A stretch of DNA of 64,000 nucleotides, from contig JAFQHN010000018.1 in NCBI GenBank assembly GCA_017397935.1, forward strand, positions 5,101 through 69,100. The letters are read 5' to 3'. The notes below the pieces were generated by a model. It was not told where the DNA came from. It did not search any database and saw only the letters and a list, made by a program, of their open reading frames with translations. Source of the DNA: Bacillota bacterium (lineage in GTDB: Bacteria > Bacillota > Dehalobacteriia > UBA4068 > UBA4997). The position numbers were made by a program, and so were the translations under genes. This document shows, in pieces, positions 14,711-56,192 of this stretch. Position 1 is the first letter of the stretch; every line of letters starts with the position of its first letter.

Positions 14711-14743
14711 ACACGCTTAACCAGATTTTAGTTAAGCTTATTA

Positions 14744-15100: not shown

Positions 15101-15142
15101 ATATCAATGATAAATACAGTTACAGTATGCCAAAACTTGCAC

Positions 15143-38826: not shown

Positions 38827-39309
38827 TTATACCCCACGGATAACTCCGCAGGCAATTTTCTGCCCGGCGTTGCCGGCCGGCTGTGTGGTAAAATCATCAA
38901 TCCCCCGGTGAATGATAACCGTGCGGCCAATCACCTCCTCCGGGTCAAACCTCTCGGTCTGCACCAGCATAAACGCCCGCCCCTGATACGCAAACAACGG
39001 CGGCAAATCTCCGGCATGGTATGGGTGCGGCGCCCCGCTTGGGTTAAAATGCGAGCCGCTGTCGGCAAAATCCCGTCCGGTGCAGGCTCCGCCCTCATGG
39101 ATATGCAGGGCAAAAACTCCGCTGCCGTCATAGTCCGATGGCAAGCCGCAAACCGCAATCTCCACCAATGTGCCGCGGTTTAACTGATCATCCTGCACCA
39201 CGGCCTGCGGATTGCTTTGGTACAGTTTCAGCGTGCCGCAAATCTGCGGATAATCCACGCCGCCTGTAATTTGGGCCGCTGCCACCAAGCGGCCGGTTGG
39301 AATAAACAT
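38827..39309 (-). CDS. Cu/Zn superoxide dismutase family protein (SodC-like, no signal peptide)
   Basis: Cu/Zn-SOD metal-site motifs in order: HIHEGG, GSHFNP, PHPYHAGDLP, IIHRGIDDF...GNAGQKIACGVI. Confidence 0.7.
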   Translation of the reverse strand: MFIPTGRLVAAAQITGGVDYPQICGTLKLYQSNPQAVVQDDQLNRGTLVEIAVCGLPSDYDGSGVFALHIHEGGACTGRDFADSGSHFNPSGAPHPYHAGDLPPLFAYQGRAFMLVQTERFDPEEVIGRTVIIHRGIDDFTTQPAGNAGQKIACGVIRGV

Positions 39310-39442
39310 AGCATCACCTCGGTAAATTATATGCAGCGGCAACAAAGAATTGCCGGGTATTGCAAAATTTCCGCAAAAATAGTAAAATAAACATACTGAT
39401 TTACGGCATATTTCAAGATTAACGATTTACGGAGGACATAAG

Positions 39443-40132
39443 ATGATTGCAGTTTTGGCCGCGATGACAGAAGAAATGGCGCCTCTCCGCGGCGCTTTGC
39501 AGGTGGAGGAAGTTTACCGCAACAAGGTGGTGCGCATCCAGCAAACCGTGGGGGATAACCCCATGCTGTTGGTGCAGACGGGCATCGGCAAGGCCAACGC
39601 TGCGGCCGCTGCCGCCATTGTTATCGCCCGCTTTGCGCCTGAGGCGCTGGTCAGCATTGGCTCGGCCGGCGGTTTTGCGCCCCATGTGCGCGTGGGTGAT
39701 ATTGTGGTGGGGACAGAGGTTCTTTACAGCGACGCCGATGCCACCTGTTTTGGCTACCGGCTGGGCCAGGTACCGCAAATGCCCGCCGTCTACCCTGCTG
39801 ATGAAGCTTTGCTGGCCAAGGCACAACAGTTAACGGCCGCCGAGGAATTTGCCGGCCATGTTCGCTTCGGCCGGATGCTGACCTCCGATTCCTTTATGAG
39901 CGACCCTGTGCGCGTAGCCGGCCTGGCGGCACAGTTCCCGCAGGCTTTTGCTTCGGATATGGAGGGCGCGGCGATTGCCCAGGCGGCTTATCAATGCGGT
40001 GTACCCTTCCTCAACCTGCGCTCCATCTCGGATATTGCCGGTGATGATGCGGCCAAAAGCTTCGATGACAACATTGACCTGGCAGCAGAACGCGCGGCCC
40101 ACTTCTTTGTGCGGCTGGCGGCGGCCATTTAA
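39443..40132 (+). CDS. mtnN: 5'-methylthioadenosine/S-adenosylhomocysteine nucleosidase
   Basis: Translation MIAVLAAMTEEMAPL..., GIGKANAAAAAA, SDMEGAAIAQAA. These are canonical Pfs motifs. Confidence 0.85.
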   Translation: MIAVLAAMTEEMAPLRGALQVEEVYRNKVVRIQQTVGDNPMLLVQTGIGKANAAAAAAIVIARFAPEALVSIGSAGGFAPHVRVGDIVVGTEVLYSDADATCFGYRLGQVPQMPAVYPADEALLAKAQQLTAAEEFAGHVRFGRMLTSDSFMSDPVRVAGLAAQFPQAFASDMEGAAIAQAAYQCGVPFLNLRSISDIAGDDAAKSFDDNIDLAAERAAHFFVRLAAAI

Positions 40133-40139
40133 GCAGGGG

Positions 40140-40168
40140 TTGACACTTTTACCTGCGGATAGTATAAT
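40140..40168 (+). promoter_or_regulatory. consensus sigma-A promoter for rib leader
   Basis: TTGACA, a 17-nt spacer, then TATAAT. Confidence 0.7.
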
Positions 40169-40185
40169 AAATTAACTTTACAAAA

Positions 40186-40390
40186 CTTAATACCGTCTTC
40201 GGGGCAGGGTGAAAATCCCGACCGGTGGTACAGCCCACGAGCCGCAAGGCATGACACGGTGCAATTCCGTGGCCGACAGTACAGTCTGGATGAGAGAAGA
40301 TGTTATTGCAGATGGCAGGTTACCTGCCACCGCTTATTTGTGTTTGTTGCAGCTCCCAGACGGTTCTTCCGCCTGCGGAGCTGTTTTTTT
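40186..40390 (+). promoter_or_regulatory. FMN riboswitch (RFN element) with terminator expression platform
   Basis: Aptamer ...cgtcttcGGGGCAGGGTGAAAATCCCGACCGGTGGTACAGCCCACGAGCCGCAAGGC...GGTGCAATTCCGTGGCCGACAGTACAGTCTGGATGAGAGAAGatg, with P1 closing as cgtcttc/gagagaag. Followed by the hairpin gcagctcc...ggagctg plus T7 (40349-40390). Confidence 0.9.
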
Positions 40391-40409
40391 GATATATGAG
40401 GTTATTTTT

Positions 40410-41546
40410 ATGAGCAATTTTATGTGCAATATAATGCGTGATGAAGATTATATGCGCCTGGCGCTGAAAGAAGCCGCCAAAGGTGCCGGCCATGTCTCGC
40501 CCAACCCGATGGTGGGTGCGGTTATTGTCAAGGGCGGTCAGATTATCGGCAAGGGTTATCATCAACGCTGCGGTGAGGCGCACGCCGAGGTTAACGCGCT
40601 GAAAAACTGCACCGCCAGCCCCAACGGCGCCACCGCTTATGTTACGCTGGAACCCTGCTGTCACTTCGGCAAGCAGCCGCCCTGTACGCAGGCCCTGCTA
40701 AACGCCGGTATCGCCAGGGTGGTGGTGGGATGCCTTGACCCCAACCCCCTCGTTGCCGGGCAGGGCAGCCAAATCCTCCGCTCACACGGCGTTGAAGTTA
40801 TTGAGGGCGTGTTGGAGGCGGAATGTAAGGCGCTGAACAGGGTTTTCTTCCATTATATCACGCACCGGCGGCCGTATGTTACGCTGAAATACGCCATGAC
40901 TTTGGACGGCAAAATCGCCGCCTACACGGGGGAGTCCAAATGGATTACCGGGGAAGCGGCACGCGCACAGGTACAGCAGCTGCGCGCCCAAAACAAGGCC
41001 ATTATGGTGGGGGTGGGTACGGTGCTGGCCGATGACCCTGCGCTGACCTGCCGCCTGCCCAACCTGCCCACACCGCTTCGGGTGATTTGCGACACCGGCC
41101 TTCGCACGCCGCTTAACGCACAGGTGGTGCAAACCGCCGCCCAAGTGCCCACGCTCATCGCCACCTGCTGTGCTGATGAGCAGAAACAGGCGCCGTACCT
41201 GGCCGCAGGCTGCCGCATAATGCAGCTGCCAGCGGACGCTGACGGCCACCCCGATTTACCGCTGCTGCTGCAAAATCTGGCGGCGGAGGGCATTGATTCT
41301 CTGCTGTTGGAGGGGGGCGCAGAACTGGCCTGGTCGATGTTAAACGCAGGTTTGGTGCAGCGAGTACAGGCTTATATTGCGCCGCTGCTGCTGGCCGGCC
41401 GCACCGCCAAAGGGCCGCTGGGGGGCATCGGTTTTGCCAACCCCAACGCAGGAATACACCTGCTAAACCCCACAATTCGCCAAATCGGGGAGGACTTTTT
41501 AATCGAAGCTGATGTTGAGGAGGTGCTGCCATGTTCACCGGCATAA
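40410..41546 (+). CDS. ribD: bifunctional riboflavin biosynthesis protein RibD (deaminase/reductase)
   Basis: CMP/dCMP deaminase zinc motif (HAEVNAL...PCCHFGKQPPC) and a reductase domain. Start chosen downstream of the riboswitch terminator. The track ORF start would lie inside the riboswitch. Confidence 0.85.
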   Translation: MSNFMCNIMRDEDYMRLALKEAAKGAGHVSPNPMVGAVIVKGGQIIGKGYHQRCGEAHAEVNALKNCTASPNGATAYVTLEPCCHFGKQPPCTQALLNAGIARVVVGCLDPNPLVAGQGSQILRSHGVEVIEGVLEAECKALNRVFFHYITHRRPYVTLKYAMTLDGKIAAYTGESKWITGEAARAQVQQLRAQNKAIMVGVGTVLADDPALTCRLPNLPTPLRVICDTGLRTPLNAQVVQTAAQVPTLIATCCADEQKQAPYLAAGCRIMQLPADADGHPDLPLLLQNLAAEGIDSLLLEGGAELAWSMLNAGLVQRVQAYIAPLLLAGRTAKGPLGGIGFANPNAGIHLLNPTIRQIGEDFLIEADVEEVLPCSPA

Positions 41547-42181
41547 TTGAGGAGATTGGCACTCTAAAAAGTGTCCACCGAGGCGCCAAATCCGCCGCCC
41601 TCATCATCAACGCGCAGGTGATAACCGACGGTTTGCGGTTGGGTGACAGCGTGGCCGTAAACGGCGTCTGCCTGACGGTGACCGAGCTTTTACCCCACGC
41701 CTTCGCCGCCGATGTGATGCCCGAAACCCTATCCCGCACAGGGTTGGGCAAGCTTGCGGCCGGCAGCCGTGTCAATTTGGAGCGTGCCGTGGCCGTGGGT
41801 GGCCGTTTGGGTGGCCATATCGTATCCGGCCACATTGACGGCACCGGGCAAATCACGCAGATCCGCCGTGACGACAACGCCGTTTGGTATCACATCGCCG
41901 CCGCTGAGAATTTGCTGCGCTATGTGGTGGAGAAAGGCTCCATCGCCATCGACGGCATCAGCCTGACCGTGGCGCAGGTGCAGCCGCAGGGCTTTGCCGT
42001 TTCCGTCATCCCCCACACCGCCGCCAACACCACGCTGACTGACCGCAAGGTGGGCGACACCGTGAATTTGGAGGCCGACATCGTGGGCAAATATATCGAG
42101 AAGCTGTTGCAGCCGACACAGACCGGCACCAACCGCAGCGGCGGCATCACCCTTGATTTTTTAAGCAGGCACGGCTTTTAA
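41531..42181 (+). CDS. ribE: riboflavin synthase alpha subunit
   Basis: Translation MFTGIIEEIGTL... with two lumazine-binding repeats. Confidence 0.9.
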   Translation: MFTGIIEEIGTLKSVHRGAKSAALIINAQVITDGLRLGDSVAVNGVCLTVTELLPHAFAADVMPETLSRTGLGKLAAGSRVNLERAVAVGGRLGGHIVSGHIDGTGQITQIRRDDNAVWYHIAAAENLLRYVVEKGSIAIDGISLTVAQVQPQGFAVSVIPHTAANTTLTDRKVGDTVNLEADIVGKYIEKLLQPTQTGTNRSGGITLDFLSRHGF

Positions 42182-42227
42182 TATTAGACTTTGATAATGT
42201 ATAGAAAAAGAAACAAGAGGTTGCAAT

Positions 42228-43436
42228 ATGACAAATAATTTTAACTATAACACCGTGGACGAGGCGCTGACCGCCCTCCGCAGCGGCGAGTTGATTCTGG
42301 TGACAGATGACCCCGACCGTGAGAACGAGGGCGACCTGATATGCTCCGCCGCCGCTGCCACCACCGAGAATTTGAATTTTATGGCGGTGCAGGGGCGCGG
42401 CCTGATTTGTATGCCCATGTCGGCGGCGCTGGCGGCCAGGTTGCAGCTGCCGCAAATGGTGCACCACAACACCGATAACCACGAAACCGCCTTCACCGTT
42501 TCCATTGACCATGTGGAGACTACCACCGGTATTTCCGCCGTGGAGCGAGGCCTGACCGCCCGCAAATGTGTGGACCCTACCAGCCGTCCGGAGGATTTTC
42601 GGCGGCCGGGCCATATGTTTCCGCTGGTGGCACGCCCCGGCGGTGTGTTGGAGCGTGCCGGACATACCGAGGCAACCGTTGATTTGATGCGTCTGGCCGG
42701 TTTGGCGGAGTGCGGCCTCTGCTGCGAGGTGATGAGCGACGACGGCACCATGATGCAGACGAGCGAGCTTATCCAAATGAGCCAAAAATACGGCCTCAAA
42801 TTTATCACCATCAAGGACCTGCAAAATTACCGCAAGCGGCACGAACAGCTGGTAAACTGCGTGGCCAAGGCCCAGATGCCCACCAAGTACGGCGATTTTG
42901 TGGCCTACGGCTATATAAACCGCCTGAACGGCGAGCACCACATCGCACTGGTCAAAGGCGAAATCGGCGACGGCCAAAACCTGCTCTGCCGCGTACACTC
43001 CGAGTGCATGACCGGCGACACCTTCGGCTCTCTGCGCTGCGATTGCGGGCAGCAGTTTGCGTCCGCCATGCGCCAAATCGAGCAGGAAGGCCGCGGCGTG
43101 CTGCTGTATATGCGGCAGGAGGGGCGCGGGATCGGCCTCATCAACAAGCTTAAAGCCTATGAGCTGCAAGAGCAGGGGCTGGATACGCTGGAAGCCAACC
43201 TGGCGCTGGGGTTTGCCGCCGACCAACGGGAATATTACATCGGCGCCCAGATTTTGCGTGATTTGGGAGCCAAAACGCTGCGGCTGCTCACCAACAACCC
43301 CGATAAGCTTTACCAGCTGAGCGATTTTGGCATGGAGATCATCGAGCGCGTGCCGATACAGATGACCGCCAACGACCACGACCTCTGTTATCTGCGCACC
43401 AAGCAGCATAAGATGGGGCACCTGCTGGATTATTAA
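42228..43436 (+). CDS. ribBA: bifunctional 3,4-dihydroxy-2-butanone-4-phosphate synthase / GTP cyclohydrolase II
   Basis: DHBP synthase N-domain (RENEGDLI) and GCHII zinc motif ([21 protein letters not shown]). Confidence 0.9.
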
Positions 43437-43482
43437 AGATACATATATTACACATAAAAATACAACCAAAGGAGATATTACC

Positions 43483-43953
43483 ATGAAAACTTACTCTGCC
43501 AAAGTGGTGGCCGAACAACCGATGAAGGTGGGCATTGTGGCCGCCCGTTTCAACGAATTTATCACCTCCAAGCTGCTGGGCGGCGCGGTAGACGGCCTGG
43601 TTCGCCACAATGTCAGCGAGGATAACATTGAGGTTGCCTGGGTTCCCGGCGCGTTTGAAATCCCACTGATCGCTGCCAAAATGGCCAAATCCGGCAAATA
43701 TGATGCAATCATCTGCGTGGGTGCGGTCATCCGCGGCACCACCAGCCATTATGATTACGTTTGCAGCGAGGTTTCCAAGGGTATCGCCGCCGTTTCGCTG
43801 GGTGCTGAGATCCCCGTGATGTTCGGCGTGCTGACCTGTGATACCATCGAGCAGGCCATTGAACGCGCAGGCACCAAGGCCGGCAACAAGGGCTATGACT
43901 GCGCTCTGGGTGCGGTAGAGATGGTAAACCTGCTGCGTGATATTGAGGCGTAA
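43483..43953 (+). CDS. ribH: 6,7-dimethyl-8-ribityllumazine synthase
   Basis: Translation [21 protein letters not shown] is the canonical RibH. Confidence 0.9.
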
Positions 43954-43967
43954 TATCGGAGAATACG

Positions 43968-44627
43968 ATGAATTTACTCTTTGACTATGACGGAACCCTG
44001 CACGATTGTCTGCATATTTATGCACCGGCGCTGCGTCATGCCTGTGCGGTGTTGACGGCCGAAGGCTGGCTGCCGCCGCTAAACTCCACCGATGAGGAAA
44101 TCGGCAGTTGGCTGGGTTTGCCCTCGCAGGAGATGTGGGATAATTTTGCCCCCAACCTGCCGCAAGAGCAGAAAATGCGGGCCAGCGCTCTCGTTGGCGA
44201 TTATATGCGGCAGGAAATTGCGGCCGGCCGTGCACGCCTGTACCCCCAGGCCCGCCAGGTTTTGCAGCAGCTAAAAGCGGCAGGGCACACGCTGCTCTTC
44301 CTCAGCAACTGCAAGAGCGCCTATTTGCAGGCACATCGGCAGGCCTTTAAGCTGGATAATTACTTTGCCGGCCTGTACTGTGCCGAGGATTGCGGCTGGC
44401 TGCCCAAGGAGCAGGTTTTTCCGCAAATTCAGGCGGCCCACCCCGGCGATTTTGTGATGATTGGCGACCGGCGGCACGATATGGCGGTGGCGGTGGCGCA
44501 TAATCTGCCGGCCATTGGCTGCGCTTACGGCTACGGCACAGCAGATGAGCTGCAAAACACACCCTACATCGCCCACGATGTGCAGGAAATTCCGGCGTTG
44601 GTGGCCAAAATTGCCGCCCAAAAATAA
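43968..44627 (+). CDS. HAD-superfamily hydrolase, terminal gene of rib operon (candidate 5-amino-6-(5-phosphoribitylamino)uracil phosphatase)
   Basis: HAD motif I at the N-terminus (LLFDYDGTL). Motif IV GDRRHD. 15-bp gap after ribH. Confidence 0.6.
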   Translation: MNLLFDYDGTLHDCLHIYAPALRHACAVLTAEGWLPPLNSTDEEIGSWLGLPSQEMWDNFAPNLPQEQKMRASALVGDYMRQEIAAGRARLYPQARQVLQQLKAAGHTLLFLSNCKSAYLQAHRQAFKLDNYFAGLYCAEDCGWLPKEQVFPQIQAAHPGDFVMIGDRRHDMAVAVAHNLPAIGCAYGYGTADELQNTPYIAHDVQEIPALVAKIAAQK

Positions 44628-44824
44628 ATTTCAGCATAACAACAACATCTCATAAAAGTCTGCCCCCAACGGGGGTAACACCAATATGAAAAAAGACATC
44701 CACAACACAAGGAAGGTTTGTAGATGTCTTTTTTGCTTTTTTAATACTTTGTCCTGCGCCATCGGGCAGCAAATATAGGCAGACTGCGGCCAAAAACAGC
44801 GTCTTCTGCACTTAACATTAAGCG

Positions 44825-46282
44825 TTATTTTGCTTCGCTTGCATTCCACCTGCCGACAAGAGCGGCAAGCTCCATCCGACTGTGCACTCCCATCTTGGGA
44901 TAAATCCTCTTTGTGTGATCTTTGACAGTATGCTCTGAGATAACTAATATCTTTGCTATGTCCCTATTGCTGTAACCGCTGCAAATCAGCTCGGCCACCT
45001 CGCGTTCCTTTTTGGTAAGCAGCATAAGAGGGTCGTCCATTAGCTTCGGTGCAGCCACAGTCTGTTCCGCAGACAATTCCGTTTCAGGCACAGCCGTATT
45101 CTCCCGGGCAGCAACAATAGCACTGTCGGCAATTCTGCGGCGCAGGGTAAAAAGAAAGAACGGCTCGATTTGTGTATAGATGAATACAAGAACCGCCATG
45201 ACCACCGCATAAACAAGATACAGCATCGAAGGTGCGGCACGGAATACCTCAACCATACCGCCATGCACCAAAACCGCAGCAAGCGCCAAACCGATAATGA
45301 CAGGTGATATGTACCTGGACGGATAAGACTTCATCATCACCGCACCGTAAAGCGGCAGCATCTGACACGAAACCAAACTGATGCCGATAAGTGCACAGGC
45401 CGCATAAGAAACAGCAGGGACATAAGTAGAAGCATACATCAGCAGAAAACCGATACCGCCCAACCCCACCAGCACAGGAATCACGCGGAACGGATGAAAA
45501 TTCGCCTTCCGGTAAAGCAAATACAGCCCCAGGCTGGCCATAGCATCAATCAAATAAGTAATAAATATACCGTGCCGCACCTCGCCAAAAATTGCAGGGC
45601 CGGAAACTCCCATCAGCGCCGCAACAAACACCAGAACACCGGTTCCAAACAGCAGCCGTTTGGGAGCGGTCAAGCCGTCGCTCTTTTTCACATAGCGTGG
45701 CTGCACCTCACGTCCCACCGGCATACGAAGGAAGAATATCAGCAGCATAGCAAGCGCGGCCACCATGATAAAACGGAAGGTCGGGAAGGTAATGGGTAAA
45801 AACTCGTTCTGCAATACGGCCATCATCAAATACGCAACTGCGTATGCTGCCGTCAGGTGTTTAATGATGCTTCGTTCGGAAAGATAGTTAACAATAACAA
45901 AGGTCTCAAACCCAATCATCAAGCAGCAGCAGAAAATCTGCACATAAATAAGCAGACGCAGGGCATCATCCGATAATGGCAGAAACAGCCCCACCGCCGT
46001 GGCCAGAGCAACACCCGTGGCAATTCTCTGCGCCCACACCACCGCAAACGGCAAGAAAATCATCCAAAGAATAGACAGCACATAGCAAACCGCAATCAGA
46101 GAAGTGGCATTGTCCATGTCGATAGGCAGCGGCGTTTTGCCGTCAATAGTCAGGGACGGCCCCACAAAATAGATAAATCCCATCTGCCAAAAAGCAAACA
46201 TGGCAAAGCAAATCAGCATCCATAGCGGCTGGTCAATTCTCTTTTTTTGATTTTCAGCAATAATCGGGTGTTCCATAATCAT
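44825..46282 (-). CDS. membrane-embedded LuxR-family transcriptional regulator (polytopic N-domain + C-terminal HTH)
   Basis: About 10 predicted TM helices, followed by a LuxR HTH (REVAELICSGYSNRDIAKILVISEHTVKDHTKRIYPKMGV). Lower GC than the flanking regions. Confidence 0.7.
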   Translation of the reverse strand: MIMEHPIIAENQKKRIDQPLWMLICFAMFAFWQMGFIYFVGPSLTIDGKTPLPIDMDNATSLIAVCYVLSILWMIFLPFAVVWAQRIATGVALATAVGLFLPLSDDALRLLIYVQIFCCCLMIGFETFVIVNYLSERSIIKHLTAAYAVAYLMMAVLQNEFLPITFPTFRFIMVAALAMLLIFFLRMPVGREVQPRYVKKSDGLTAPKRLLFGTGVLVFVAALMGVSGPAIFGEVRHGIFITYLIDAMASLGLYLLYRKANFHPFRVIPVLVGLGGIGFLLMYASTYVPAVSYAACALIGISLVSCQMLPLYGAVMMKSYPSRYISPVIIGLALAAVLVHGGMVEVFRAAPSMLYLVYAVVMAVLVFIYTQIEPFFLFTLRRRIADSAIVAARENTAVPETELSAEQTVAAPKLMDDPLMLLTKKEREVAELICSGYSNRDIAKILVISEHTVKDHTKRIYPKMGVHSRMELAALVGRWNASEAK

Positions 46283-46572
46283 GCCTTTCTTTTTACAAAA
46301 TTTCGGTCTGATAATGCCATACCACTCACATTCTCAGCAAAAATACCCGTTTTTTGGGGTGTATACCCCAAAATCCCACCAACGTGGGATATGAAAATGG
46401 CAAAAAATACTGTAAAATGATACTATAAAATGATAATAACACAGACATAAACCGAATTTTATTATACTGATAATAATGACATTATATCACAAATGTCAAA
46501 TTATTCAAAAAAATTTATTCAAAAAAACATATAAACTTATCTAAAACAATAACTTAAAGGAGGTAAATTGTT

Positions 46573-47556
46573 ATGGCATTTTGTATGAATTGTGGTAATC
46601 AACTCCCCGACGGCAGCCGCTTCTGCGGCAACTGTGGCGCACAGCAGGGCACACCTGCCGCTGCTATGGTACAGCAGGCCGGTCAGTCCGTTCCTGCTTC
46701 CAATCAGATGCAGAAGGACGGTATCGTTTTCACCCGCGCCGATGTCATTGATTATGAGATTTTCGGTGATGATATGCAGTTGGTGGAGATCGAACTGGAC
46801 CCCGGCGAGAGCGTACTGGCCGAGGCAGGTGCTATGAACTATATGGATGCCCGCATCAAAATGGAGACGATTTTCGGTGACGGCAGCGGTGCCGATGCCA
46901 ACAAGGGTTTGGGCGGCAAGCTGCTCTCCGCAGGCAAGCGCGCGCTGACCGGCGAGGGCCTGTTTATGACCGTTTTCCAGAACACCGACCCTGTGAGCAA
47001 AGTCAAGGTGGCCTTTGCCTCCCCTTATCCCGGTAAAATTATCCCCGTGGATCTCGACTCCTTCAACCGGACGATGATTTGCCAAAAGTCTGCCTTCCTC
47101 TGCGCAGCCAAAGGCGTGAATGTAGGCGTCCATTTCCAGAAGAAGCTGGGCGCAGGATTGTTTGGCGGCGAGGGCTTTATTATGCAGCGTCTCACCGGCG
47201 ATGGCATTGTGTTCCTGAACGCCGGCGGCACCATCATCAAAAAGACGCTGCAAGCAGGTGAAATGCTGAAAATCGACACCGGCTGCCTGGTGGCCATGAG
47301 TGAAACCGTAGATTACGATGTAGCCTTCCAGAGCGACATCAAGAGCGGTTTCCTGGGCGGCGAAGGTTTGTTCCTGGCCACCTTAACCGGCCCCGGTGAG
47401 GTCTGGCTACAATCCCTGCCTTTCAGCCGTATGGCTGATGAGATCATTAAAGCCAGCCGCAGCAACAACAAAGAAGAAAATAAGGGCATCAACAATCCGC
47501 TGAACGAAGTGACCGGCAGCCTGAACAATGCATTGGGCGGACTCTTCAAGTTCTAA
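46573..47556 (+). CDS. TIGR00266/AIM24-family (DUF124) protein with N-terminal zinc-ribbon
   Basis: N-terminus MAFCMNCGNQLPDGSRFCGNCGAQ (CxxC...CxxC). The body matches the AIM24-like beta-rich family (FMTVFQNTD..., GGEGFIMQRLTGDGIVFLNAGGTI). Confidence 0.6.
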   Translation: MAFCMNCGNQLPDGSRFCGNCGAQQGTPAAAMVQQAGQSVPASNQMQKDGIVFTRADVIDYEIFGDDMQLVEIELDPGESVLAEAGAMNYMDARIKMETIFGDGSGADANKGLGGKLLSAGKRALTGEGLFMTVFQNTDPVSKVKVAFASPYPGKIIPVDLDSFNRTMICQKSAFLCAAKGVNVGVHFQKKLGAGLFGGEGFIMQRLTGDGIVFLNAGGTIIKKTLQAGEMLKIDTGCLVAMSETVDYDVAFQSDIKSGFLGGEGLFLATLTGPGEVWLQSLPFSRMADEIIKASRSNNKEENKGINNPLNEVTGSLNNALGGLFKF

Positions 47557-47610
47557 ATCTGCCAGGCTGCAATAACTGTAAATACCAGGAAACGAAAGGA
47601 GAAAACGACT

Positions 47611-48789
47611 ATGAAAAAACGCACTTTTTCTTTCCTTTTGGCGCTTGTGATGTGCCTGTCCCTCCTGCCTATGACAGCGCTGGCGGCACTCCCCGACAAG
47701 ATAGACGCACCCCAAAATCCAAAAGCGGCGCTGGATGACAATGTGCCAGGGGCATTTATCGATTACACTGACGAAATCATCATTTCTTTTGGCCTTACCG
47801 ATGCACACAGAGCGCTGCTGGCAGGTGATGCGGCGGCTATGATTTTGCAGGTAGACTGGTCGATCAATTCCGAAACTGACTGGAAGTGTTCCGGACAGGA
47901 CACTTGGATCGATTCCCTCAGACCGGAGTATGGAAAAGATGCCGTGACGCTAACCAATGGAGATATCGTTGATCAGATCGCCATACTGCGCTCTAATTAC
48001 AATATGCCCGCAGATAATGGATACGCTCATATTTGCCATGGTATTGACGACAGCGGAAATGGATGGCTTGACTTAGAGAACAACACCCTCTATTTCAAAC
48101 TCCGTTTTGTAATGCGTGACTACGATGATAACAAGGTCTATTCCGATTGGACGGATGTATTCACCATCGGCAAGGAAGTGGACAAGGAAGAGTTTGAAGC
48201 ATCCGAATGGGCGCAGGAAGAACTTGCGAGGGCAGACGAGTTTGGTCTGATCCCCGACTGCCTTGACGGTGCAGACCTGACCGCCGACATTACAAGAGCC
48301 GAGTTTGCCGCTGTTGCGGTAAAAGTTTATGAGGCTCTGTCCGGCACTGCGGCGATCCCCATCGTCAATAACCCGTTCACCGATACGGGCGATGTGGAGG
48401 TGCTGAAAGCCTACAACATCGGCGCAGTAAACGGCACAAGCGCAACCACCTATGAGCCCAATGCGCTTTTGAACAGAGAACAGGCGGCAACGATGCTGAC
48501 ACGGGTATTCAAGAAGGTCACCATGGCAGGCTGGACGCTTGCCACAGACAGCCAATTCACCCTGCCTTATACCAAGCCTGCCGCCTTTGCCGATGACAAG
48601 GACATCTCCGACTGGGCAAAGGACAGCGTGTACTTTATGTCGGCCAACGGTATCGTGGGCGGTGTGGGCAACGGCAAATTTGCCCCAAAGAATATAACCA
48701 CCGAGGAACAGGCAACCGGTTATGCCAACGCCACCCGTGAACAGGCGCTTCTTATCGCCGTCCGTATGGTCGAGAACCTCGGCAAGTAA
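47611..48789 (+). CDS. secreted SLH-domain protein (unknown N-domain + three S-layer-homology repeats)
   Basis: Signal peptide MKKRTFSFLLALVMCLSLLPMTALA. SLH motifs (FTDTGD...REQAATMLTRVF, FADDKDISDWAKDSVYFMSANGIVGGVGNGKFAP...REQALLIAVRM). About 50% GC. Confidence 0.7.
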   Translation: MKKRTFSFLLALVMCLSLLPMTALAALPDKIDAPQNPKAALDDNVPGAFIDYTDEIIISFGLTDAHRALLAGDAAAMILQVDWSINSETDWKCSGQDTWIDSLRPEYGKDAVTLTNGDIVDQIAILRSNYNMPADNGYAHICHGIDDSGNGWLDLENNTLYFKLRFVMRDYDDNKVYSDWTDVFTIGKEVDKEEFEASEWAQEELARADEFGLIPDCLDGADLTADITRAEFAAVAVKVYEALSGTAAIPIVNNPFTDTGDVEVLKAYNIGAVNGTSATTYEPNALLNREQAATMLTRVFKKVTMAGWTLATDSQFTLPYTKPAAFADDKDISDWAKDSVYFMSANGIVGGVGNGKFAPKNITTEEQATGYANATREQALLIAVRMVENLGK

Positions 48790-48895
48790 ACAGAGACACA
48801 ATAAGGCGGTCGGTATTTCCGCCGGCCGCCCATATTTAACACATAACGGATATTCTATACAATAAAATATTCTATATAATAAAAAGGAGGTTTAC

Positions 48896-49570
48896 ATGAT
48901 GAAGAAGCTTCTTGCGCTTTTACTAGCGCTGGTAATGACATTCTCTCTTGCTGCTTGCGGTGGCGATGACAGCAAATCCCCTGACAACAGCGGGCAGCAG
49001 CAGAGTGAAATTTCCAACACAGAGACAGACGATACAGTTGATCTGAGCGGCTTCCTGGCCACCAAAACAGGTAAATTCTACAATCAGTTTGCTGATGGCA
49101 GGATGTATATGGAGTATGAAACAGAAATAGATGGCCAGAAGATGACCGTAATATCCGCAACCGACGGTAACAAGACTTATTCCGAGAGCAAGCTTGACGG
49201 CGTCAGCATGGGTGTCAGCATCATCGACGGCGAGGATATGTATACCATTGACCACGCCGGCAAAATGGTTATCAAAATGTCGCTCGGCACAACCACGCAG
49301 ACCATCGCCGGTGCAGTACTGGATGAAGCTGATGTGGATATGGGCGACTACAAAACCGGCACCCGTGAGATTGCCGGCCAAACTTATGATACCGAAGAAT
49401 GGATCATTGAAGGGGCAGCTTCCATTATGTGCTTCGATGGCGATGAGCTTGCCTATATAATCGGCGCTTTTGAGGGCGAAGAAATAATTATGAAAATCAT
49501 CAAGGCATCCGATAGCGTGGACGCAGGTCTGTTTGAAATTCCTGCCGATTATGCGGTAATGGAAATGTAG
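48896..49570 (+). CDS. hypothetical lipoprotein
   Basis: Lipobox LALVMTFSLAACGGDD. No recognised family. Confidence 0.5.
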   Translation: MMKKLLALLLALVMTFSLAACGGDDSKSPDNSGQQQSEISNTETDDTVDLSGFLATKTGKFYNQFADGRMYMEYETEIDGQKMTVISATDGNKTYSESKLDGVSMGVSIIDGEDMYTIDHAGKMVIKMSLGTTTQTIAGAVLDEADVDMGDYKTGTREIAGQTYDTEEWIIEGAASIMCFDGDELAYIIGAFEGEEIIMKIIKASDSVDAGLFEIPADYAVMEM

Positions 49571-49825
49571 CAAGCCGCCTTGTGGGCACATAGCCGCCTT
49601 CCTCGCCTGATTACAACAAAACTACTATTACACATATATCACCTCACCGGGCAGCTTCTGCTGTCCGGTTTTTTGTTGCAAAGCCGGAATATTTAAGCAT
49701 CAAATACCGCACAAAAAACAGGACGACTGTATGGTAACACAGCCGCCCCGCAACAAAACAACATTAACTTTTATGATGCTCCCAATTATGTATCTGATAA
49801 AGCACCTGATATCCGCACCGTTTCT

Positions 49826-50197
49826 TTAAGGCCAAACCGGAAACGGCACATAATTGGCCAGCACGGCATTAACCGCCGCCCGCTCGTCGTCCGACAAGCT
49901 GAAACTCTGCTGTGAACCGTTGAAAGTACCGCAATCCGCATGATAATTCAGCTTCTCGCCGTCCACCAGCAAAACGCAATCGTGCAGGCAATCGGTGTTC
50001 TCCTCCAACCACACGGCGTCAGCCAGCGCAGCCTCAATCACCGCCGCATCCTCAGCAGACATCGGCATAAAATCCTCGCCACCAAACTGCTTTATGCGCA
50101 CAGCCGCCTCATCACCACCGCAGGCAGCCAGCGCAGGCAGCAAAATCAGCAGGCACAGGCTAAAAATCCTCCTCATGGTCACACCCCGTTTATACAT
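49826..50197 (-). CDS. hypothetical small lipoprotein
   Basis: Lipobox LLPALAACGG. 4 Cys in the mature part. Confidence 0.5.
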   Translation of the reverse strand: MYKRGVTMRRIFSLCLLILLPALAACGGDEAAVRIKQFGGEDFMPMSAEDAAVIEAALADAVWLEENTDCLHDCVLLVDGEKLNYHADCGTFNGSQQSFSLSDDERAAVNAVLANYVPFPVWP

Positions 50198-50223
50198 TTT
50201 TTATGCAAAATTTATCGGGGTTT

Positions 50224-51296: not shown

Positions 51297-54044
51297 TTAT
51301 TCCTCGGGCAGCTCAGGCAGCTCGGCCATCACAGCGGCACAACGCGGGCACAGACCGTTCTCGTCGGTTTCTTCGCTGTAAATCCAGCAGCGAACACACT
51401 TGTGGCCCTTGGCAGCCTCAACAGCCACCTTAATGCCGTCAGCAGCCTCGCCTTCCACCACCGCACACTGGGATACGATGAACAGGCCGGCCAACTCAGC
51501 CTCAGCAGCCTTCAACAGCGCATAATCCTCGCCCTCGGCGGTAATAACCACACCGGCGTCCAGAGAATGACCGATCTGCTTGGCCTTGCGAGCCAGCTCC
51601 AACTGACCGGCCACAGCTTCCTTGTAAGCCGCCAGCTTCTGCCATTTCTCGTCCAGAGCCTCATCAACCCAATCAGCATTTACCTCCGGCATCGAGAGCA
51701 GCTGAACGCTGACCGGAGCCTCGGCAGTTTTGGGCATATAACGGTAAATTTCCTCCGATGTAAAGGCCAGAATCGGGGTGATCAGACGCAGCATAGCGTC
51801 CAGAATATGATACATCACTGTCTGTACCGAGCGGCGGGCAGCAGCGTCCGGCAGCTCAGAATACAGGGTGTCCTTGGTAATATCCAGATACAGGTTGCTC
51901 ATCTCCACCACGCAGAAGTGATGAATGGCATGGTAAACAGAATGGAACTCATAGGCATCATAAGCCGCACGCACACGCTTGATCAGCATTTGCAGGCGGT
52001 GCAGCATCCAGCGGTCAACCTCACGCAGCTCAGCATAAGGCAGCAAATCAGCCTCCAAATCAAAACCGTTCAGGTTAGAAAGCAGGAAACGCGCGGTGTT
52101 GCGGATTTTGCGGTAAGTTTCGCTCACCTGCTTCAAAATGCCGTTGCTGATAGCCAAGTCGGAGCGATAATCGGCAGAGCTTACCCACAGACGCAGCACA
52201 TCGGCGCCCATTTTGTTGATGATCTCCAACGGGTCAACCACGTTGCCCAGAGATTTACTCATCTTGCGGCCCTTTTCATCCACCAGGAAGCCGTGCGTCA
52301 ATACGGCCTTGTACGGTGCTTTGCCGCGGCAGGCCACCGCAATATTCAGCGAGGAGTTAAACCAGCCACGGTGCTGGTCAGAGCCTTCCAGGTACAAATC
52401 AACAGGCCAGCCCAGCTCATCACGCTTATCGGCCACGGCCAGATGGCTGCTGCCGCTGTCAAACCAAACGTCCATAATGTCGGTTTCCTTGCGGAACTCA
52501 TGGCAGCCACATTCACAGGTCAGGCCCTCGGGGATCAGCTCGGCAGCGTCCCTGGCAAACCAGATGTTGGAGCCATGCTCGGCAAACAACTGCTGGATGT
52601 GCGCAATCGTTTCATCATTAACAATTTCCTTGCCGCATTCCTTGCAGTAGAAAATCGGGATCGGTACACCCCAGGTACGCTGACGGGAGATGCACCAGTC
52701 GCTGCGGTCTTTCACCATATTATAGATGCGGTCATGGCCCCAGGCCGGGATCCACTGCACATTGTCAATTTCCTGCAAGGCCTGCTCACGGAAGCCGTCA
52801 ATCGAGCAGAACCACTGTTCGGTGGCGCGGAAGATAATGGGGTTTTTGCAGCGCCAACAATGCGGATAAGCGTGGGTGATCCACTGTAATTTCAGCAGCG
52901 CACCGCACTCGTCCAAATCCTTAACCACCTGCTTGCCGCCCTCATTGATATGCAGGCCCTGATATTTGCCGGCCTCGGCGGTAAAGTGGCCGGTGTTGTC
53001 CACGGGAGAGAGAATTTCCAGACCGTAGCGCTGGCCAACCTCAAAGTCATCAACACCGTGACCCGGTGCAGTATGAACACAACCGCAGCCGGCATCCAAA
53101 GTTACATGGTCGCCCAAAATAATCTTAGATACCCGGTCGATCAGCGGATGGCGGCACTCAATGCCCTCCAACTCGCTGCCCTTATATTCAGCCAGAATTT
53201 CCACACTCTCGGCCCCGATTTCCTTGGCTACGCCGTCCAGCAGCTCCTTGGCCATAACCAGCTTGGCACCGTCCACCAGCGCCACCACATAAGTATAATC
53301 TGCGTGGATACAGATGGCCACGTTGGCAGGAATAGTCCACGGGGTGGTTGTCCAAATCACAAAAGAAACATCATCGGCCAACACACCCTTGCCGTCCTGC
53401 ACCGCAAATTTCACATAGATAGCAGGGCTTTTTACATCGGCGTATTCAACCTCGGCCTCGGCCAGGGCGGTTTCGCAATCGGCACACCAATAAACAGGCT
53501 TCTTGCCCTTATAGATGTAGCCCTTCTTCACCATCTCGCCAAAAGCACCGATCTGGGTAGCCTCAAACTCTTTTTGCAGGGTAATGTAAGGATGCTCCCA
53601 ATCACCGCGCACACCCAGGCGCTTGAACTGCTCCCGCTGAATATCCACAAAGGAGAGGGCAAATTCCTCACACTTCTCACGGAAGGCAGCCTTGTCCTCG
53701 CTGTGGTGGTTGATACCCAGCTCTTTAATGGCACGCTGCTCAATCGGCAGGCCGTGGGTATCCCAACCGGGCACATAGGGCGAATCAAAGCCGCTCATGC
53801 TCTTATATTTAACAATAATATCTTTCAGCACCTTGTTCAGCACATGGCCGGTGTGGATGTTACCGTTGGCGTAGGGCGGGCCGTCGTGCAGAATAAACTT
53901 CGGCTTGCCGGCATTTTGCTCCGCCACCAAATTGTAAATGTCCTGCTCCTGCCAGAATTTCAGGGTTTCCGGCTCACGCTCGGGCAGATTGCCGCGCATG
54001 GGGAAATCGGTGCTGGGCAGATTAAGAGTCTTACCGTAATCCAT
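51297..54044 (-). CDS. ileS: isoleucine--tRNA ligase
   Basis: Translation MDYGKTLNLPSTDFPMRGNLPEREPE..., HIGH (PYANGNIHTGH), KMSKS, CP1 editing domain, C-terminal zinc finger (CVRCW...CPRC). Confidence 0.95.
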   Translation of the reverse strand: MDYGKTLNLPSTDFPMRGNLPEREPETLKFWQEQDIYNLVAEQNAGKPKFILHDGPPYANGNIHTGHVLNKVLKDIIVKYKSMSGFDSPYVPGWDTHGLPIEQRAIKELGINHHSEDKAAFREKCEEFALSFVDIQREQFKRLGVRGDWEHPYITLQKEFEATQIGAFGEMVKKGYIYKGKKPVYWCADCETALAEAEVEYADVKSPAIYVKFAVQDGKGVLADDVSFVIWTTTPWTIPANVAICIHADYTYVVALVDGAKLVMAKELLDGVAKEIGAESVEILAEYKGSELEGIECRHPLIDRVSKIILGDHVTLDAGCGCVHTAPGHGVDDFEVGQRYGLEILSPVDNTGHFTAEAGKYQGLHINEGGKQVVKDLDECGALLKLQWITHAYPHCWRCKNPIIFRATEQWFCSIDGFREQALQEIDNVQWIPAWGHDRIYNMVKDRSDWCISRQRTWGVPIPIFYCKECGKEIVNDETIAHIQQLFAEHGSNIWFARDAAELIPEGLTCECGCHEFRKETDIMDVWFDSGSSHLAVADKRDELGWPVDLYLEGSDQHRGWFNSSLNIAVACRGKAPYKAVLTHGFLVDEKGRKMSKSLGNVVDPLEIINKMGADVLRLWVSSADYRSDLAISNGILKQVSETYRKIRNTARFLLSNLNGFDLEADLLPYAELREVDRWMLHRLQMLIKRVRAAYDAYEFHSVYHAIHHFCVVEMSNLYLDITKDTLYSELPDAAARRSVQTVMYHILDAMLRLITPILAFTSEEIYRYMPKTAEAPVSVQLLSMPEVNADWVDEALDEKWQKLAAYKEAVAGQLELARKAKQIGHSLDAGVVITAEGEDYALLKAAEAELAGLFIVSQCAVVEGEAADGIKVAVEAAKGHKCVRCWIYSEETDENGLCPRCAAVMAELPELPEE

Positions 54045-54161
54045 AATCAAACCTTCTCCTTATTTATCAAAACATCATAAAAAAACTTATACTTCTATAA
54101 CTTATACTTCTATTATATTGAATATATTGAATAATGCCTAAGGCCGGCATCAAATACCGGC

Positions 54162-54434
54162 CTAAAACAATATTGCCAAGATACGATACGCCAATCCCTC
54201 CAACATATACAGGCAGAAGATGCCCAAAATGGGCGAAAAATCCACCGGGAAGCGTGGGCTGGGCGGCAAAATGCGGCGGAAGAAACGCAAAAACGGCTCG
54301 GTCATCTCATAGATAAAAAGCGTAATGGCGTTACCCCGCGACAGCGGAAACCACGACAGCAAAATGTTGGCAATCAGCAGAAAATAATAAACCTCAAAGG
54401 CAAAATGCACAAACAAATAAATATATGATTGCAT
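54162..54434 (-). CDS. YggT-family membrane protein (cell-division cluster)
   Basis: 90 aa, 2 TM helices. YGGT motif ILLSWFP. Confidence 0.7.
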   Translation of the reverse strand: MQSYIYLFVHFAFEVYYFLLIANILLSWFPLSRGNAITLFIYEMTEPFLRFFRRILPPSPRFPVDFSPILGIFCLYMLEGLAYRILAILF

Positions 54435-54447
54435 AACCTACCCTCTG

Positions 54448-54942
54448 TTAACGCTGCCAGGGATAACTGTTGGCCTCAACCGAGCTGAACGCCTGCACCT
54501 CTGGGTCCATAATCTGGCCGTTGACATCCACCTGGCTGGAACCAAACAGGAAGGTAGAACCGCTGACCTTTTTAGACTCGCCGCTTAAAGCAAAAACCGC
54601 ACCGGAGAGAAAATCCACCATGCGCTGGGCAGTTTCCTTGTCCAACTCCTCAAAGTTTACGATAACCACCTTTTGCTCCTTAATGCTCTGGGCGATGTGC
54701 TGCAAATCATCATAAGCCTTGGCCTTAACCAGCACCATCTCACAGGCTTTTTTGCCGCCGCCTGCGGTATTGCCGCCGGGAATCGCCATAACCTGATTAC
54801 GGCGGGCCTTTTTGGCGTCCTGTTCCTGCCAGATGTCCTTCTCGGCAGTAGCCGCGATTTTATCCATTTCCTCCGGCTTCAAAGCCTCTTCTTCCTCCTC
54901 CTGGAAGAAAACACTGGTAACTTTATCCCATACTCCGGACAT
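54448..54942 (-). CDS. sepF: cell division protein SepF
   Basis: Acidic linker, then the conserved C-domain VVIVNFEELDKETAQRMVDFLSGAVFALSG. Start at MSGVWDK with a GGGAGG Shine-Dalgarno sequence. Confidence 0.85.
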   Translation of the reverse strand: MSGVWDKVTSVFFQEEEEEALKPEEMDKIAATAEKDIWQEQDAKKARRNQVMAIPGGNTAGGGKKACEMVLVKAKAYDDLQHIAQSIKEQKVVIVNFEELDKETAQRMVDFLSGAVFALSGESKKVSGSTFLFGSSQVDVNGQIMDPEVQAFSSVEANSYPWQR

Positions 54943-55035
54943 TGAAAATACCTCCCTGAAAAAACTATTGTTCCAAACCGAATACACTCTTTATATATTA
55001 CATTTATATATTACATCATAAAAATCAACTGATAA

Positions 55036-55782
55036 TCAACGGTACACACGGCCGCCAAAAATACGGCTGCCCACACGCACCATGGTTGCCCCTTCCTCGA
55101 CGGCAACCTTATAATCATTAGACATCCCCATAGAAAGTTCCTGCAAAACAACCTGCAAATCGGCAATTTTTTCGGCTTGGCGGTTAATTTCATCACGCAG
55201 CTCACGCAGCTCGGCAAACACGGGGCGCACCTCCTCGGCCGGGGCATTGGGGGCCACCGTCATCAGTCCGTCCAGCCTGAGATGAGGCAGCCTGGCCGCC
55301 GCCTGCACAAAATCCCAGACCTCCGCCGGTGCCAAACCGAATTTACTGTCCTCGGCCGCCACATTAACCTCCAACAGGCAAGGCACAATAATGTTCTGCG
55401 CCGCCGCCCGCTTTTCAATCTCCTCGGCCAGCCGCCAGCTTTCCAGCGAGTGTATCATCTGCACCCGCCCGATTATCTGCCGCACCTTGTTGGTCTGCAA
55501 ATGACCAATCAAATGCCACTTGGCGTCAGCGGGCAGCTCCTCCTGCTTCATCAGCAGCTCCTGCACACGGTTTTCGGCCAGGCCGTCAACCCCTAAGCGC
55601 CAACAGGCCGCCACCACATCAGCCGGCACGGTTTTGCTCACCGCCAGCAGCTTAACATTGGCTGCCGCGTGTGTGCCTTCCGCTTTGGCCTTGGCAATAT
55701 CCGCCTTAACCTCAGCCAGATTTTCTGCCAGATAGGCAAATTCCGTCAACAACCTCACCCCCAGAAAGGCAAACATCATCAC
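55036..55782 (-). CDS. YggS-family pyridoxal-phosphate homeostasis protein
   Basis: Alanine-racemase-N-like fold. PLP lysine in LLAVSKTVPA. C-terminus IGHLQTNK...GMSNDY. Conserved yggS-sepF-yggT order. Confidence 0.85.
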   Translation of the reverse strand: MMMFAFLGVRLLTEFAYLAENLAEVKADIAKAKAEGTHAAANVKLLAVSKTVPADVVAACWRLGVDGLAENRVQELLMKQEELPADAKWHLIGHLQTNKVRQIIGRVQMIHSLESWRLAEEIEKRAAAQNIIVPCLLEVNVAAEDSKFGLAPAEVWDFVQAAARLPHLRLDGLMTVAPNAPAEEVRPVFAELRELRDEINRQAEKIADLQVVLQELSMGMSNDYKVAVEEGATMVRVGSRIFGGRVYR

Positions 55783-56057
55783 ACAATTATTCTATTATAC
55801 TATATTGCTATACTTTTGATATTATATTTTACCATATACAAAGCCCGTTTGCAAAGGCTTTTGCCCCACTTTTACATAAATTTATTAACACATCTCATTA
55901 ACATTTCTCAGCACTTTTGGCAAATCCTGCCAAAAACTTTCACGCCAAAATTTTGACAAAAAATTATTTATTTTGCCCAAAACTATTGACAAATACAAAA
56001 GCCCTGTACCACGGCTTGGTATTTGATAAAGTACAAAATATAGTGCGCTTTTTTTGC

Positions 56058-56086
56058 TTGACTTACCACATTTTGTATGCCATAAT
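56058..56086 (+). promoter_or_regulatory. putative sigma-A promoter of nrdD
   Basis: TTGACT, a 17-nt spacer, then CATAAT. Confidence 0.5.
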
Positions 56087-56096
56087 AATAAAGCAC

Positions 56097-56114
56097 CATA
56101 TAGAGTACTATATG
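56097..56114 (+). promoter_or_regulatory. candidate NrdR operator (inverted repeat at nrdD transcription start)
   Basis: Inverted repeat catatagAGTActatatg (7-bp arms). ATATA/TATAT half-sites resemble the NrdR-box core. nrdR is encoded 1 kb away. Confidence 0.4.
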
Positions 56115-56192
56115 TAACATACATTACAATTAACCACGCCGGCCCGTTTTGCGGCGTGATTTTATCACTCATCAGGAGGTTTTTAGCACATC

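Follow-up and report, generated by a model that had tools for sequence, protein, structure and literature searches.

We examined a segment (positions 44640-50220) of a 64,000-nucleotide (nt) stretch of Bacillota bacterium DNA (assembly GCA_017397935.1, contig JAFQHN010000018.1, positions 5,101 to 69,100; hereafter the window), in which five genes lie between a HAD hydrolase gene at the end of the rib block and pyrB. A LuxR-type regulator with 12 predicted transmembrane helices is encoded on the minus strand (44825..46282); divergent from it, on the plus strand, are genes for an AIM24-family protein with a zinc ribbon (46573..47556), a secreted SLH-domain protein (47611..48789) and a lipoprotein (lipoprotein 1, 48896..49570), followed on the minus strand by the gene for a second lipoprotein (lipoprotein 2, 49826..50197). 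An earlier note, made from the sequence alone, had marked out this segment as an accessory region, and both its edges (stop codons of the HAD gene at 44627 and of pyrB at 50224) and its gene content hold: the GerE helix-turn-helix (HTH), the zinc ribbon–AIM24 fusion, the SLH domain and the two lipobox-bearing lipoproteins were all found. The reading that we favour, with moderate confidence, is that the segment comprises a one-component regulatory module, made of the membrane LuxR and its envelope-directed cargo, plus one unrelated gene.

The regulator and its divergent operon

The regulator (485 amino acids (aa)) consists of a membrane domain of major facilitator superfamily (MFS) fold at approximately residues 20-380, a disordered linker (383-414) and a GerE/LuxR HTH at residues 421-475 (PF00196, 64.9 bits). 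The C-terminal HTH is thus where the earlier note had placed it, but the number of helices is 12 rather than the approximately ten it had counted: hydropathy gave 11 peaks, and an AlphaFold2 (AF2) model (predicted local distance difference test (pLDDT) 85, predicted template modelling score (pTM) 0.81) has 12 transmembrane helices, grouped 6+6 with a central loop at residues 187-207. The top 50 Foldseek matches of this model in the PDB were all MFS transporters (E 3e-5 to 6e-4, template modelling (TM) score on the target ≤0.63), including SLC19A1/3, NorA, GLUT3 and MdfA, and no Pfam MFS model matched the protein at E ≤ 0.01. There were 419 homologues, the best 120 of which share 58-75% identity over the full length, and many polar residues of the membrane domain are invariant among them; such strong conservation suggests that members of the clade may share a common signal. 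No paralogue of any of the five segment genes was found elsewhere in the window.

The first gene facing away from the regulator encodes a 327-aa protein with an N-terminal CxxC-x10-CxxC zinc ribbon (Zn_Ribbon_1), an AIM24/TIGR00266 core and a C-terminal tail ending in ALGGLFKF. The assignment of an AIM24-like protein with an N-terminal CxxC-CxxC ribbon, divergent from the LuxR gene, was confirmed at both profile cut-offs (PF01987, 250.3 bits against 25.7; TIGR00266, 116.4 bits against 96.6), and the core is 60% identical to PA3696 of Pseudomonas (PDB 1YOX). More than 8000 homologues were found (top 120 at 79-100% identity). The protein carries no signal peptide, and its tail is possibly an amphipathic membrane anchor, judging by its sequence. 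This end (47530-47556) resembles the GLKDLFKF end of an unrelated zinc-ribbon partner protein in a related locus (L090:5680-6555, C-terminus), and partner proteins of related operons start with MGFLDR; such shared short amphipathic termini (LFKF ends and MGFLDR starts) may be membrane-targeting or docking peptides. The literature on bacterial AIM24/TIGR00266 proteins yielded no assigned function, only a link to ter clusters and incidental detections.

The AIM24 stop codon is followed, after a 54-nt gap without a terminator, by the start of the SLH gene, so these two genes are probably co-transcribed. The 392-aa SLH protein is predicted to be secreted and wall-anchored, with a signal peptide, a beta-rich N-domain of approximately 165 aa ending in YSDWTDVFT, and an SLH region at approximately residues 193-392. 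Of what had been proposed for it, the SLH assignment stands (PF00395, 40.5 bits against a cut-off of 20.8), whereas the N-domain is shorter than the roughly 230 aa given, and three repeats are weakly supported (Pfam gives two stretches; a three-segment self-alignment gave z = 0.4, 2.8 and 2.1). The N-domain is rare: in a search of 1.84 billion representatives, only 18 clusters matched it.

Lipoprotein 1 (224 aa, lipobox LAAC) follows its lipobox with a low-complexity linker and, at approximately residues 50-224, a half-barrel like those of LolA, LolB, LprG and RseB. The core of its AF2 model has a pLDDT of approximately 90, and Foldseek matched it to LolA, LprG, LppX and RseB (probability 1.00, E 3e-6 to 1e-3, TM 0.4-0.6) at sequence identities of 6-14%; there are 184 homologues, and DUF4412 (PF14371) scored 16.6 bits, under its gathering threshold of 21.6. 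In its known members, the LolA/LprG-type fold binds acyl chains or lipids. Just 5′ of the gene lies a promoter-like site (TTAACA-16-TACAAT, 48836..48883, plus strand) with a tandem 17-nt repeat (ATATTCTATACAATAAA / ATATTCTATATAATAAA), preceded by a GC hairpin without a strong T run, and this is possibly an internal promoter. An intrinsic terminator (49646..49669, plus strand; 10-bp stem and T run) ends the AIM24–SLH–lipoprotein 1 unit. At the other end, between the convergent HAD hydrolase and LuxR genes, an inverted repeat (44689..44734; 17-nt arms, 94% complementary, A/T runs on both sides) probably terminates transcription in both directions and marks where the module ends on the left.

The fifth gene stands apart. 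Lipoprotein 2 (123 aa, lipobox LAAC) is encoded on the same strand as pyrB, 26 nt downstream of it, with a terminator after it at 49751-49718; profile searches returned no family match, and no homologue was found in any related locus examined. Given the lack of a homologue in those loci, the typical GC content, the 26-nt gap to pyrB and the terminator of its own, we place it in the ileS-pyrB unit, of which it is probably the last gene. The earlier five-gene grouping is thereby reduced to four (LuxR, AIM24, SLH and lipoprotein 1), lipoprotein 2 not being conserved with the module. In three related species a small XRE-type HTH gene (111-120 aa, MSQ..K.LGERLR.LR.AAGLTQE.LAE...) adjoins pyrB (L002:11073-11411, L004:11318-11653, L003:9198-9560); it is missing beside pyrB in the window, and lipoprotein 2 is there instead.

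A conserved palindrome and predicted promoter facing the operon

In the divergent intergenic region, the putative LuxR operator is an 18-bp palindrome, ATCCCACCAACGTGGGAT (box A; ATCCCAC-N4-GTGGGAT, 46373..46390), which is unique in the window: its outer form, ATCCC-N8-GGGAT, has this single match in 64 kb (0.03 expected). Box A recurs with 0-1 mismatch upstream of the LuxR homologue in nine related loci (L082, L084, L085, L087, L090, L172, L177, L179 and L181), and hence in 10 of the 10 loci examined, the window included, whatever the cargo; its outer ATCCC/GGGAT is near-invariant among aligned loci. It abuts a predicted activator-dependent promoter for the AIM24 operon (46391..46418, plus strand), in which a −35-like ATGAAA (46391-46396) is followed, after a 16-nt spacer, by a −10 element, TAAAAT (46413-46418), that was also listed by a promoter scan. 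The same architecture (box A, 6 nt, 15-17 nt and TAnnnT) was present in all ten loci, always directed away from the LuxR gene, with weak −35-like hexamers throughout, a spacer of 15 nt in L084 and 17 nt in L181, and, in a six-locus alignment, an invariant T-A-n-n-n-T hexamer at fixed spacing. Box A is centred at approximately −43 relative to the predicted start (near 46425). LuxR-type class II activation uses a palindrome centred near −42.5, and box A together with its promoter has, as far as sequence can indicate, the geometry of a class II activator site. Control of the divergent operon by the membrane LuxR, as the earlier note had proposed, is therefore supported by a conserved palindrome and promoter facing the operon in every locus compared, as a prediction from sequence.

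For the LuxR gene itself, the promoter scan gave two minus-strand sites within 46461..46508 (TTGAAT-16-TATAAT with a TG, and TTGACA-18-TATTAT), which would yield a leader of approximately 190 nt containing box A. This leader folds better than shuffled sequences (z = −4.35), and across six loci the palindrome is its only conserved part; with nothing beyond the palindrome conserved, we do not propose a riboswitch or otherwise structured leader.

Most of the other loci carry a further regulatory layer. Their first cargo gene encodes a small GerE protein (84-103 aa), and a second palindrome, box B (CTACC-N6-GGTAG), was found only in loci encoding it (L082:6772-6787, L082:6925-6940, L177:5965-5980 and L179:5897-5912), approximately 100 nt beyond box A and just 5′ of a second promoter-like site and the small GerE gene. 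The window contains no second box A and no box B site. These observations suggest a two-tier LuxR/GerE cascade elsewhere, of which the window would hold a reduced form.

Recurrence, synteny and composition

The association among four of the five genes extends well beyond this contig. With the collection's own gene calls for related loci, every context read in which AIM24 is at least 83% identical, together with L093 (76%), carries a lipoprotein 1 homologue (33-69% identity), so that AIM24 and lipoprotein 1 occur together in seven other lineages (L086, L087-89, L090, L091, L093, L171-173 and L174/175). A homologue of the 12-helix LuxR (47-51% identity) is divergent from the AIM24 operon in four of the seven (L087-89, L090, L093 and L171-173); in the remaining three (L086, L091 and L174), a different GerE regulator of 555-558 aa and a solute-binding protein take its place, and the SLH or SDW protein is present in some of these GerE-regulated cassettes and absent from others. 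Between the SLH proteins of the window and of L086, identity is 30% for the N-domain (domain 1 in L086) and 61% for the SLH region; the L086 protein is in turn 40% identical to an L087 protein anchored by a C-terminal transmembrane helix and zinc ribbon, not by SLH, and the latter is 72% identical to a protein in L177. This recurrent co-occurrence places four of the five segment genes in a recurring set, and it supports the grouping of LuxR, zinc ribbon–AIM24, the SLH protein and lipoprotein 1 into one coherent module. Among 16 accessory proteins of related operons, Pfam searches at E ≤ 1 gave only zinc ribbons, GerE and sub-threshold DUF4870. An expanded, 13-gene version of the operon (L087:7273-16146) is found in a common gut species, its AIM24 protein occurring in 133 blocks of the contig collection; it encodes a small GerE protein, three kinds of zinc-ribbon protein, AIM24, five lipoproteins sharing a low-complexity linker, an SDW protein with a transmembrane helix and cytoplasmic zinc ribbon, and a DUF4870-like membrane protein.

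To place the segment on the chromosome, we compared 21-kb loci from eight related species (L001-L008; gut metagenome-assembled genomes labelled Peptococcaceae or Candidatus Avidehalobacter, PyrB 84-91% identical). The ileS-pyrB side is collinear in all eight, the DNA past pyrB differs in each, and none of the five segment genes lies within 10 kb of pyrB; the comparison with relatives called for by the earlier note thus bore out a segment that is not syntenic. In the two closest species, the SodCu-mtnN-ribDEBAH-HAD block (38827-44627 in the window) is inverted and abuts pyrB (L002:11626-17223, L007:11768-17371); in L006, crcB-gyrB-gyrA lies between pyrB and HAD, with gyrB-gyrA relocated; and L003, L004, L005 and L008 show yet other arrangements. 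Contigs of the same species keep the gene order of the window. The 3′ side of pyrB is accordingly a recurrent inversion breakpoint in this lineage, and, as every relative is rearranged here, absence from the site is no proof of insertion: the segment is specific to this lineage at this position, which is a breakpoint of rearrangement and no clean point of insertion.

The regulator and its cargo differ in their nearest relatives. The window LuxR groups with those of L082, L084, L085, L177, L179 and L181 (clade 1, 62-72% identity), which face dockerin, Flg_new or other large secreted proteins, or zinc-ribbon cargo; the AIM24-linked LuxRs of L087, L090 and L172 (clade 2) are 45-51% identical to clade 1. 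The window AIM24 and lipoprotein 1 are closest to those of L086, L174 and L087 (89-93% and 65-69%, respectively). At the nucleotide level, the window resembles other cassettes from the AIM24 ribosome-binding site (46555) onwards, the resemblance of the LuxR–box unit stops near 46392, and the AT-rich spacer between these points is not conserved. Different nearest relatives together with these similarity breakpoints suggest that the cargo was probably recombined into a resident regulator–promoter slot, at a chromosomal site that is itself a rearrangement breakpoint.

Neither in nor beside the segment did we find an integrase, transposase, recombinase, transfer RNA (tRNA) gene or flanking direct repeat. 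PADLOC and PHROG searches gave only generic HTH, SLH and signal-peptide matches, and segment proteins had no viral-contig relatives, negatives on which a defence, phage or viral origin was rejected; recent transfer from a sampled donor was likewise rejected, given a best nucleotide identity of 84% to another cassette. In L174 (also L175 and L091), an AIM24 cassette with an AIM24 protein 92-93% identical to that of the window, the 555-aa GerE regulator and a solute-binding protein lies between recombinases (L174:918-2687 and 13950-15425), one a tyrosine integrase and the other a large serine recombinase, accompanied by sigma and HTH genes. Cassettes of the L174 type may be carried by an integrative element, and the flanking recombinases in L174/L175 make mobility plausible.

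The segment has the lowest GC content of all 5.6-kb windows in the stretch (approximately 2.3 standard deviations (SD) under the mean; 49.4%, against 54.0% for the remaining window). The dip reported by the earlier note (48-52%, against flanks of roughly 60%) is thus real, but its size was overstated: a content near 60% is found only on the rib side (56-61% per gene), and pyrB and ileS are at 53.6-54.7%. Compared with the 46 other open reading frames (ORFs) of the window (GC 55.6 ± 3.4%; GC at third codon positions (GC3) 0.67 ± 0.055), the LuxR gene (49.5%, GC3 0.56) and the lipoprotein 1 gene (48.3%, 0.56) lie approximately 2 SD lower in both measures, the SLH gene is intermediate (52.2%, 0.60), and the genes for AIM24 (55.0%, 0.68) and lipoprotein 2 (55.9%, 0.65) are typical; within the segment, GC is lowest (38-40%) in the 290 bp between the divergent genes (46283-46572). 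Intergenic DNA and two of the genes account for most of the dip, and shorter dips that are equal or deeper occur elsewhere (44% at 2001-4000; 48% at 54001-56000). A shift of codon preference towards AAA and GAT, also reported, was not there, neither fraction being raised in segment genes relative to the reference ORFs (AAA/(AAA+AAG) 0.33-0.54 versus 0.46 ± 0.14; GAT/(GAT+GAC) 0.31-0.61 versus 0.63 ± 0.15). Short direct repeats do occur in the spacers, but they are few rather than filling them (a 14-nt repeat three times, at 46413, 46426 and 46463; another 14-nt repeat twice, at 46498 and 46512; a 17-nt repeat twice, at 48850 and 48867), and they coincide with promoter-like −10 elements. On its own, a modest dip in GC at a synteny breakpoint is no evidence for a foreign island.

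Other low-GC and RNA features of the window lie outside the segment. The deepest trough near the segment (36-44%), within 55500-56250 and with no Rfam family at the gathering threshold, corresponds to a divergent region of approximately 400 bp between an Ala_racemase_N-family (PF01168) gene and nrdD, and a transfer-messenger RNA (tmRNA) gene (14744-15100, minus strand; RF00023, 167 bits; tag peptide GKTSYAVAA) coincides with another low-GC stretch. At the gathering level, Rfam found in the whole window only this tmRNA and a flavin mononucleotide (FMN) riboswitch (40191-40305, plus strand; RF00050, 112 bits), both outside the segment, in which there was no match at E ≤ 1. The FMN riboswitch is directly 5′ of ribD, so the GTG-started ORF at 40209-41546 overcalls that gene, whose real start is near 40410.

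Interpretation, alternatives and significance

In the one-component module that we favour, a dimer of the membrane LuxR, whose C-terminal HTH would lie in the cytoplasm, would bind the palindrome next to the weak −35 element, and the membrane domain would bind or transport a small or lipophilic molecule, leading to activation of the divergent operon; we infer both the binding of box A and the direction of its effect, activation rather than repression. The operon would then supply a cytoplasmic, probably membrane-peripheral zinc ribbon–AIM24 protein, an SLH wall protein and a surface lipoprotein with a lipid-binding fold of the LolA/LprG type. Given this content, the output would be directed at the cell envelope, most likely serving to handle a hydrophobic or lipid cue or to respond to it, and the envelope direction that the earlier note had also proposed is supported by the SLH anchor, the lipobox and the modelled LolA fold.

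Several observations weigh against this interpretation. A palindrome overlapping a −35 element could equally serve repression, and in the LuxR direction T4-6 comes after the palindrome in all loci, so that an RNA hairpin is possible. The small GerE protein and box B, present in most other loci, were not found in the window, and lipoprotein 1 may be transcribed from a separate promoter. None of the closest LuxR homologues (62-72%) has AIM24 as a neighbour, so the pairing of the window LuxR with its cargo could be recent and not yet functionally integrated. Finally, since AIM24 has no known function in bacteria, an envelope or lipid role is argued here solely by analogy of fold.

Three other explanations were weighed against the same evidence. 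That all five genes arrived as a single block by recent horizontal transfer, with low GC as the donor signature, seems to us somewhat unlikely. It would account for the lowest-GC 5.6-kb stretch of the window, for the absence of the genes between pyrB and HAD/rib in eight related species, and for the serine recombinase and tyrosine integrase that border a related cassette in L174/L175. However, AIM24 and lipoprotein 2 are typical in GC and GC3, codon usage is not shifted, and the dip is largely promoter DNA between genes and a gene for a hydrophobic membrane protein; neither mobility genes (integrase or transposase) nor a tRNA or flanking direct repeat were found here; no other cassette exceeds 84% nucleotide identity; LuxR and cargo have different closest relatives; lipoprotein 2 is found with the module nowhere; and the site is rearranged in every relative, such that absence does not prove insertion. 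Horizontal acquisition, as the earlier note proposed, is plausible: absence at the site in eight species and the recombinases of L174/L175 speak for it, whereas the rearranged site, the lack of mobility genes and the low nucleotide identity speak against it. A far less probable account would make the five genes accidental neighbours, the LuxR controlling itself or distant genes and the others being unrelated housekeeping or envelope genes gathered at a synteny breakpoint. Although the closest LuxR homologues do face other genes, and AIM24 is very widespread, highly conserved and found in many contexts, this account leaves unexplained why AIM24 and lipoprotein 1 are found together with a GerE regulator in seven further lineages whose flanks differ, why the N-domain protein recurs, and why the box–promoter is directed into the cargo in every locus.

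The remaining explanation concerns the palindrome, which could instead be an RNA hairpin followed by a U-run in the LuxR 5′ leader, acting as a terminator or attenuator while the divergent operon is regulated independently. We regard this as quite improbable, because in each arm the five outermost positions keep their sequence and not just their pairing, as expected of protein half-sites, and because the fixed 22-nt distance to a −10 element on the opposite strand, in 10 of the 10 loci, would go unexplained; moreover, the U-run is short, the rest of the leader is not conserved and there is no Rfam match. In favour of an RNA element are the T4-6 after the palindrome in all loci, the predicted LuxR promoters upstream of it, the fold of the leader relative to shuffles and two stem positions that have changed on both sides.

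A broader reading, which we put forward tentatively as a possibility, extends the favoured module: that a widespread slot exists in gut Clostridia, consisting of a highly conserved MFS-fold LuxR transceptor with a fixed box A and promoter, usually a small GerE protein with box B, and envelope cargo that can be exchanged within a common pool of genes (zinc ribbon–AIM24, LolA-like lipoprotein, SDW wall or membrane protein and MGFLDR zinc-ribbon proteins).

The sensor and its operator have partial precedents. MFS-derived sensors ('transceptors') include yeast Snf3/Rgt2 and Escherichia coli UhpC, which the modelled window LuxR would resemble in its 6+6 helix fold, central cytoplasmic loop and signalling role; unlike them, it is fused directly to a DNA-binding domain and has no Pfam MFS match. 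By analogy with class II activation by LuxR/TraR, an 18-20-bp palindrome would lie at a weak −35 with a good −10 and be bound by a dimer of GerE-type HTH domains, but the window regulator lacks an acyl-homoserine-lactone-binding domain, its sensor being the membrane MFS-like domain. Regulators with 12 transmembrane helices and a LuxR output were established in 2022 in Coriobacteriia, as sensors for xenobiotic-metabolising enzymes: in Eggerthella lenta, DadR, HcdR and CadR were shown genetically to be activators of adjacent genes, dozens of paralogues occur per genome, with transmembrane domains that share less than 20% identity and with catechol dehydroxylases and other redox enzymes as targets, the family being marked by 10-12 N-terminal helices and a C-terminal LuxR-type HTH (Dong et al. 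2022, PMC9734109). The window regulator is like DadR, HcdR and CadR in layout, with an N-terminal 12-helix domain, a C-terminal LuxR/GerE HTH and a position beside its predicted target genes; it differs in belonging to a Clostridial clade with conserved transmembrane domains (best 120 homologues at 58-75%), in having one copy in the window and in its cargo of non-enzymatic envelope and zinc-ribbon proteins, and we found no counterpart of the clade's conserved operator described for the E. lenta regulators (PMC9734109). By this analogy, the window system can be regarded as a Clostridial variant of the 12-helix LuxR one-component activators, with envelope cargo.

For the cargo, the AIM24 core scores above both family cut-offs, as a relative of PA3696 (1YOX), SpyM3_0169 (1PG6) and yeast Aim24, and differs in carrying an N-terminal zinc ribbon and a C-terminal GGLFKF tail. 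AIM24 genes are known to occur in ter clusters (cited in PMC5822837), whereas the window AIM24 has a GerE regulator and a LolA-like lipoprotein as neighbours instead of TerD. Lipoprotein 1 resembles LolA, LolB, LprG, LppX and RseB in predicted fold, LprG and LppX also being lipoproteins, although the host is presumably a Gram-positive-type Clostridium without the Lol pathway.

Together, these results describe a strongly conserved Clostridial clade of 12-helix LuxR regulators that have the MFS fold, a predicted operator of 18 bp placed as for class II activation, and envelope cargo that is not enzymatic. With a single box, promoter and regulator, the system lends itself to direct testing. The AIM24 family, whose conservation reaches from bacteria to mitochondria, has, to our knowledge, no known role in prokaryotes, and its linkage here to a LolA-like lipoprotein and a membrane sensor provides a concrete lead to its function in bacteria. 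If the slot proposed for gut Clostridia is real, it would be the first regulatory and functional context for bacterial AIM24, pointing to membrane-lipid or envelope homeostasis.

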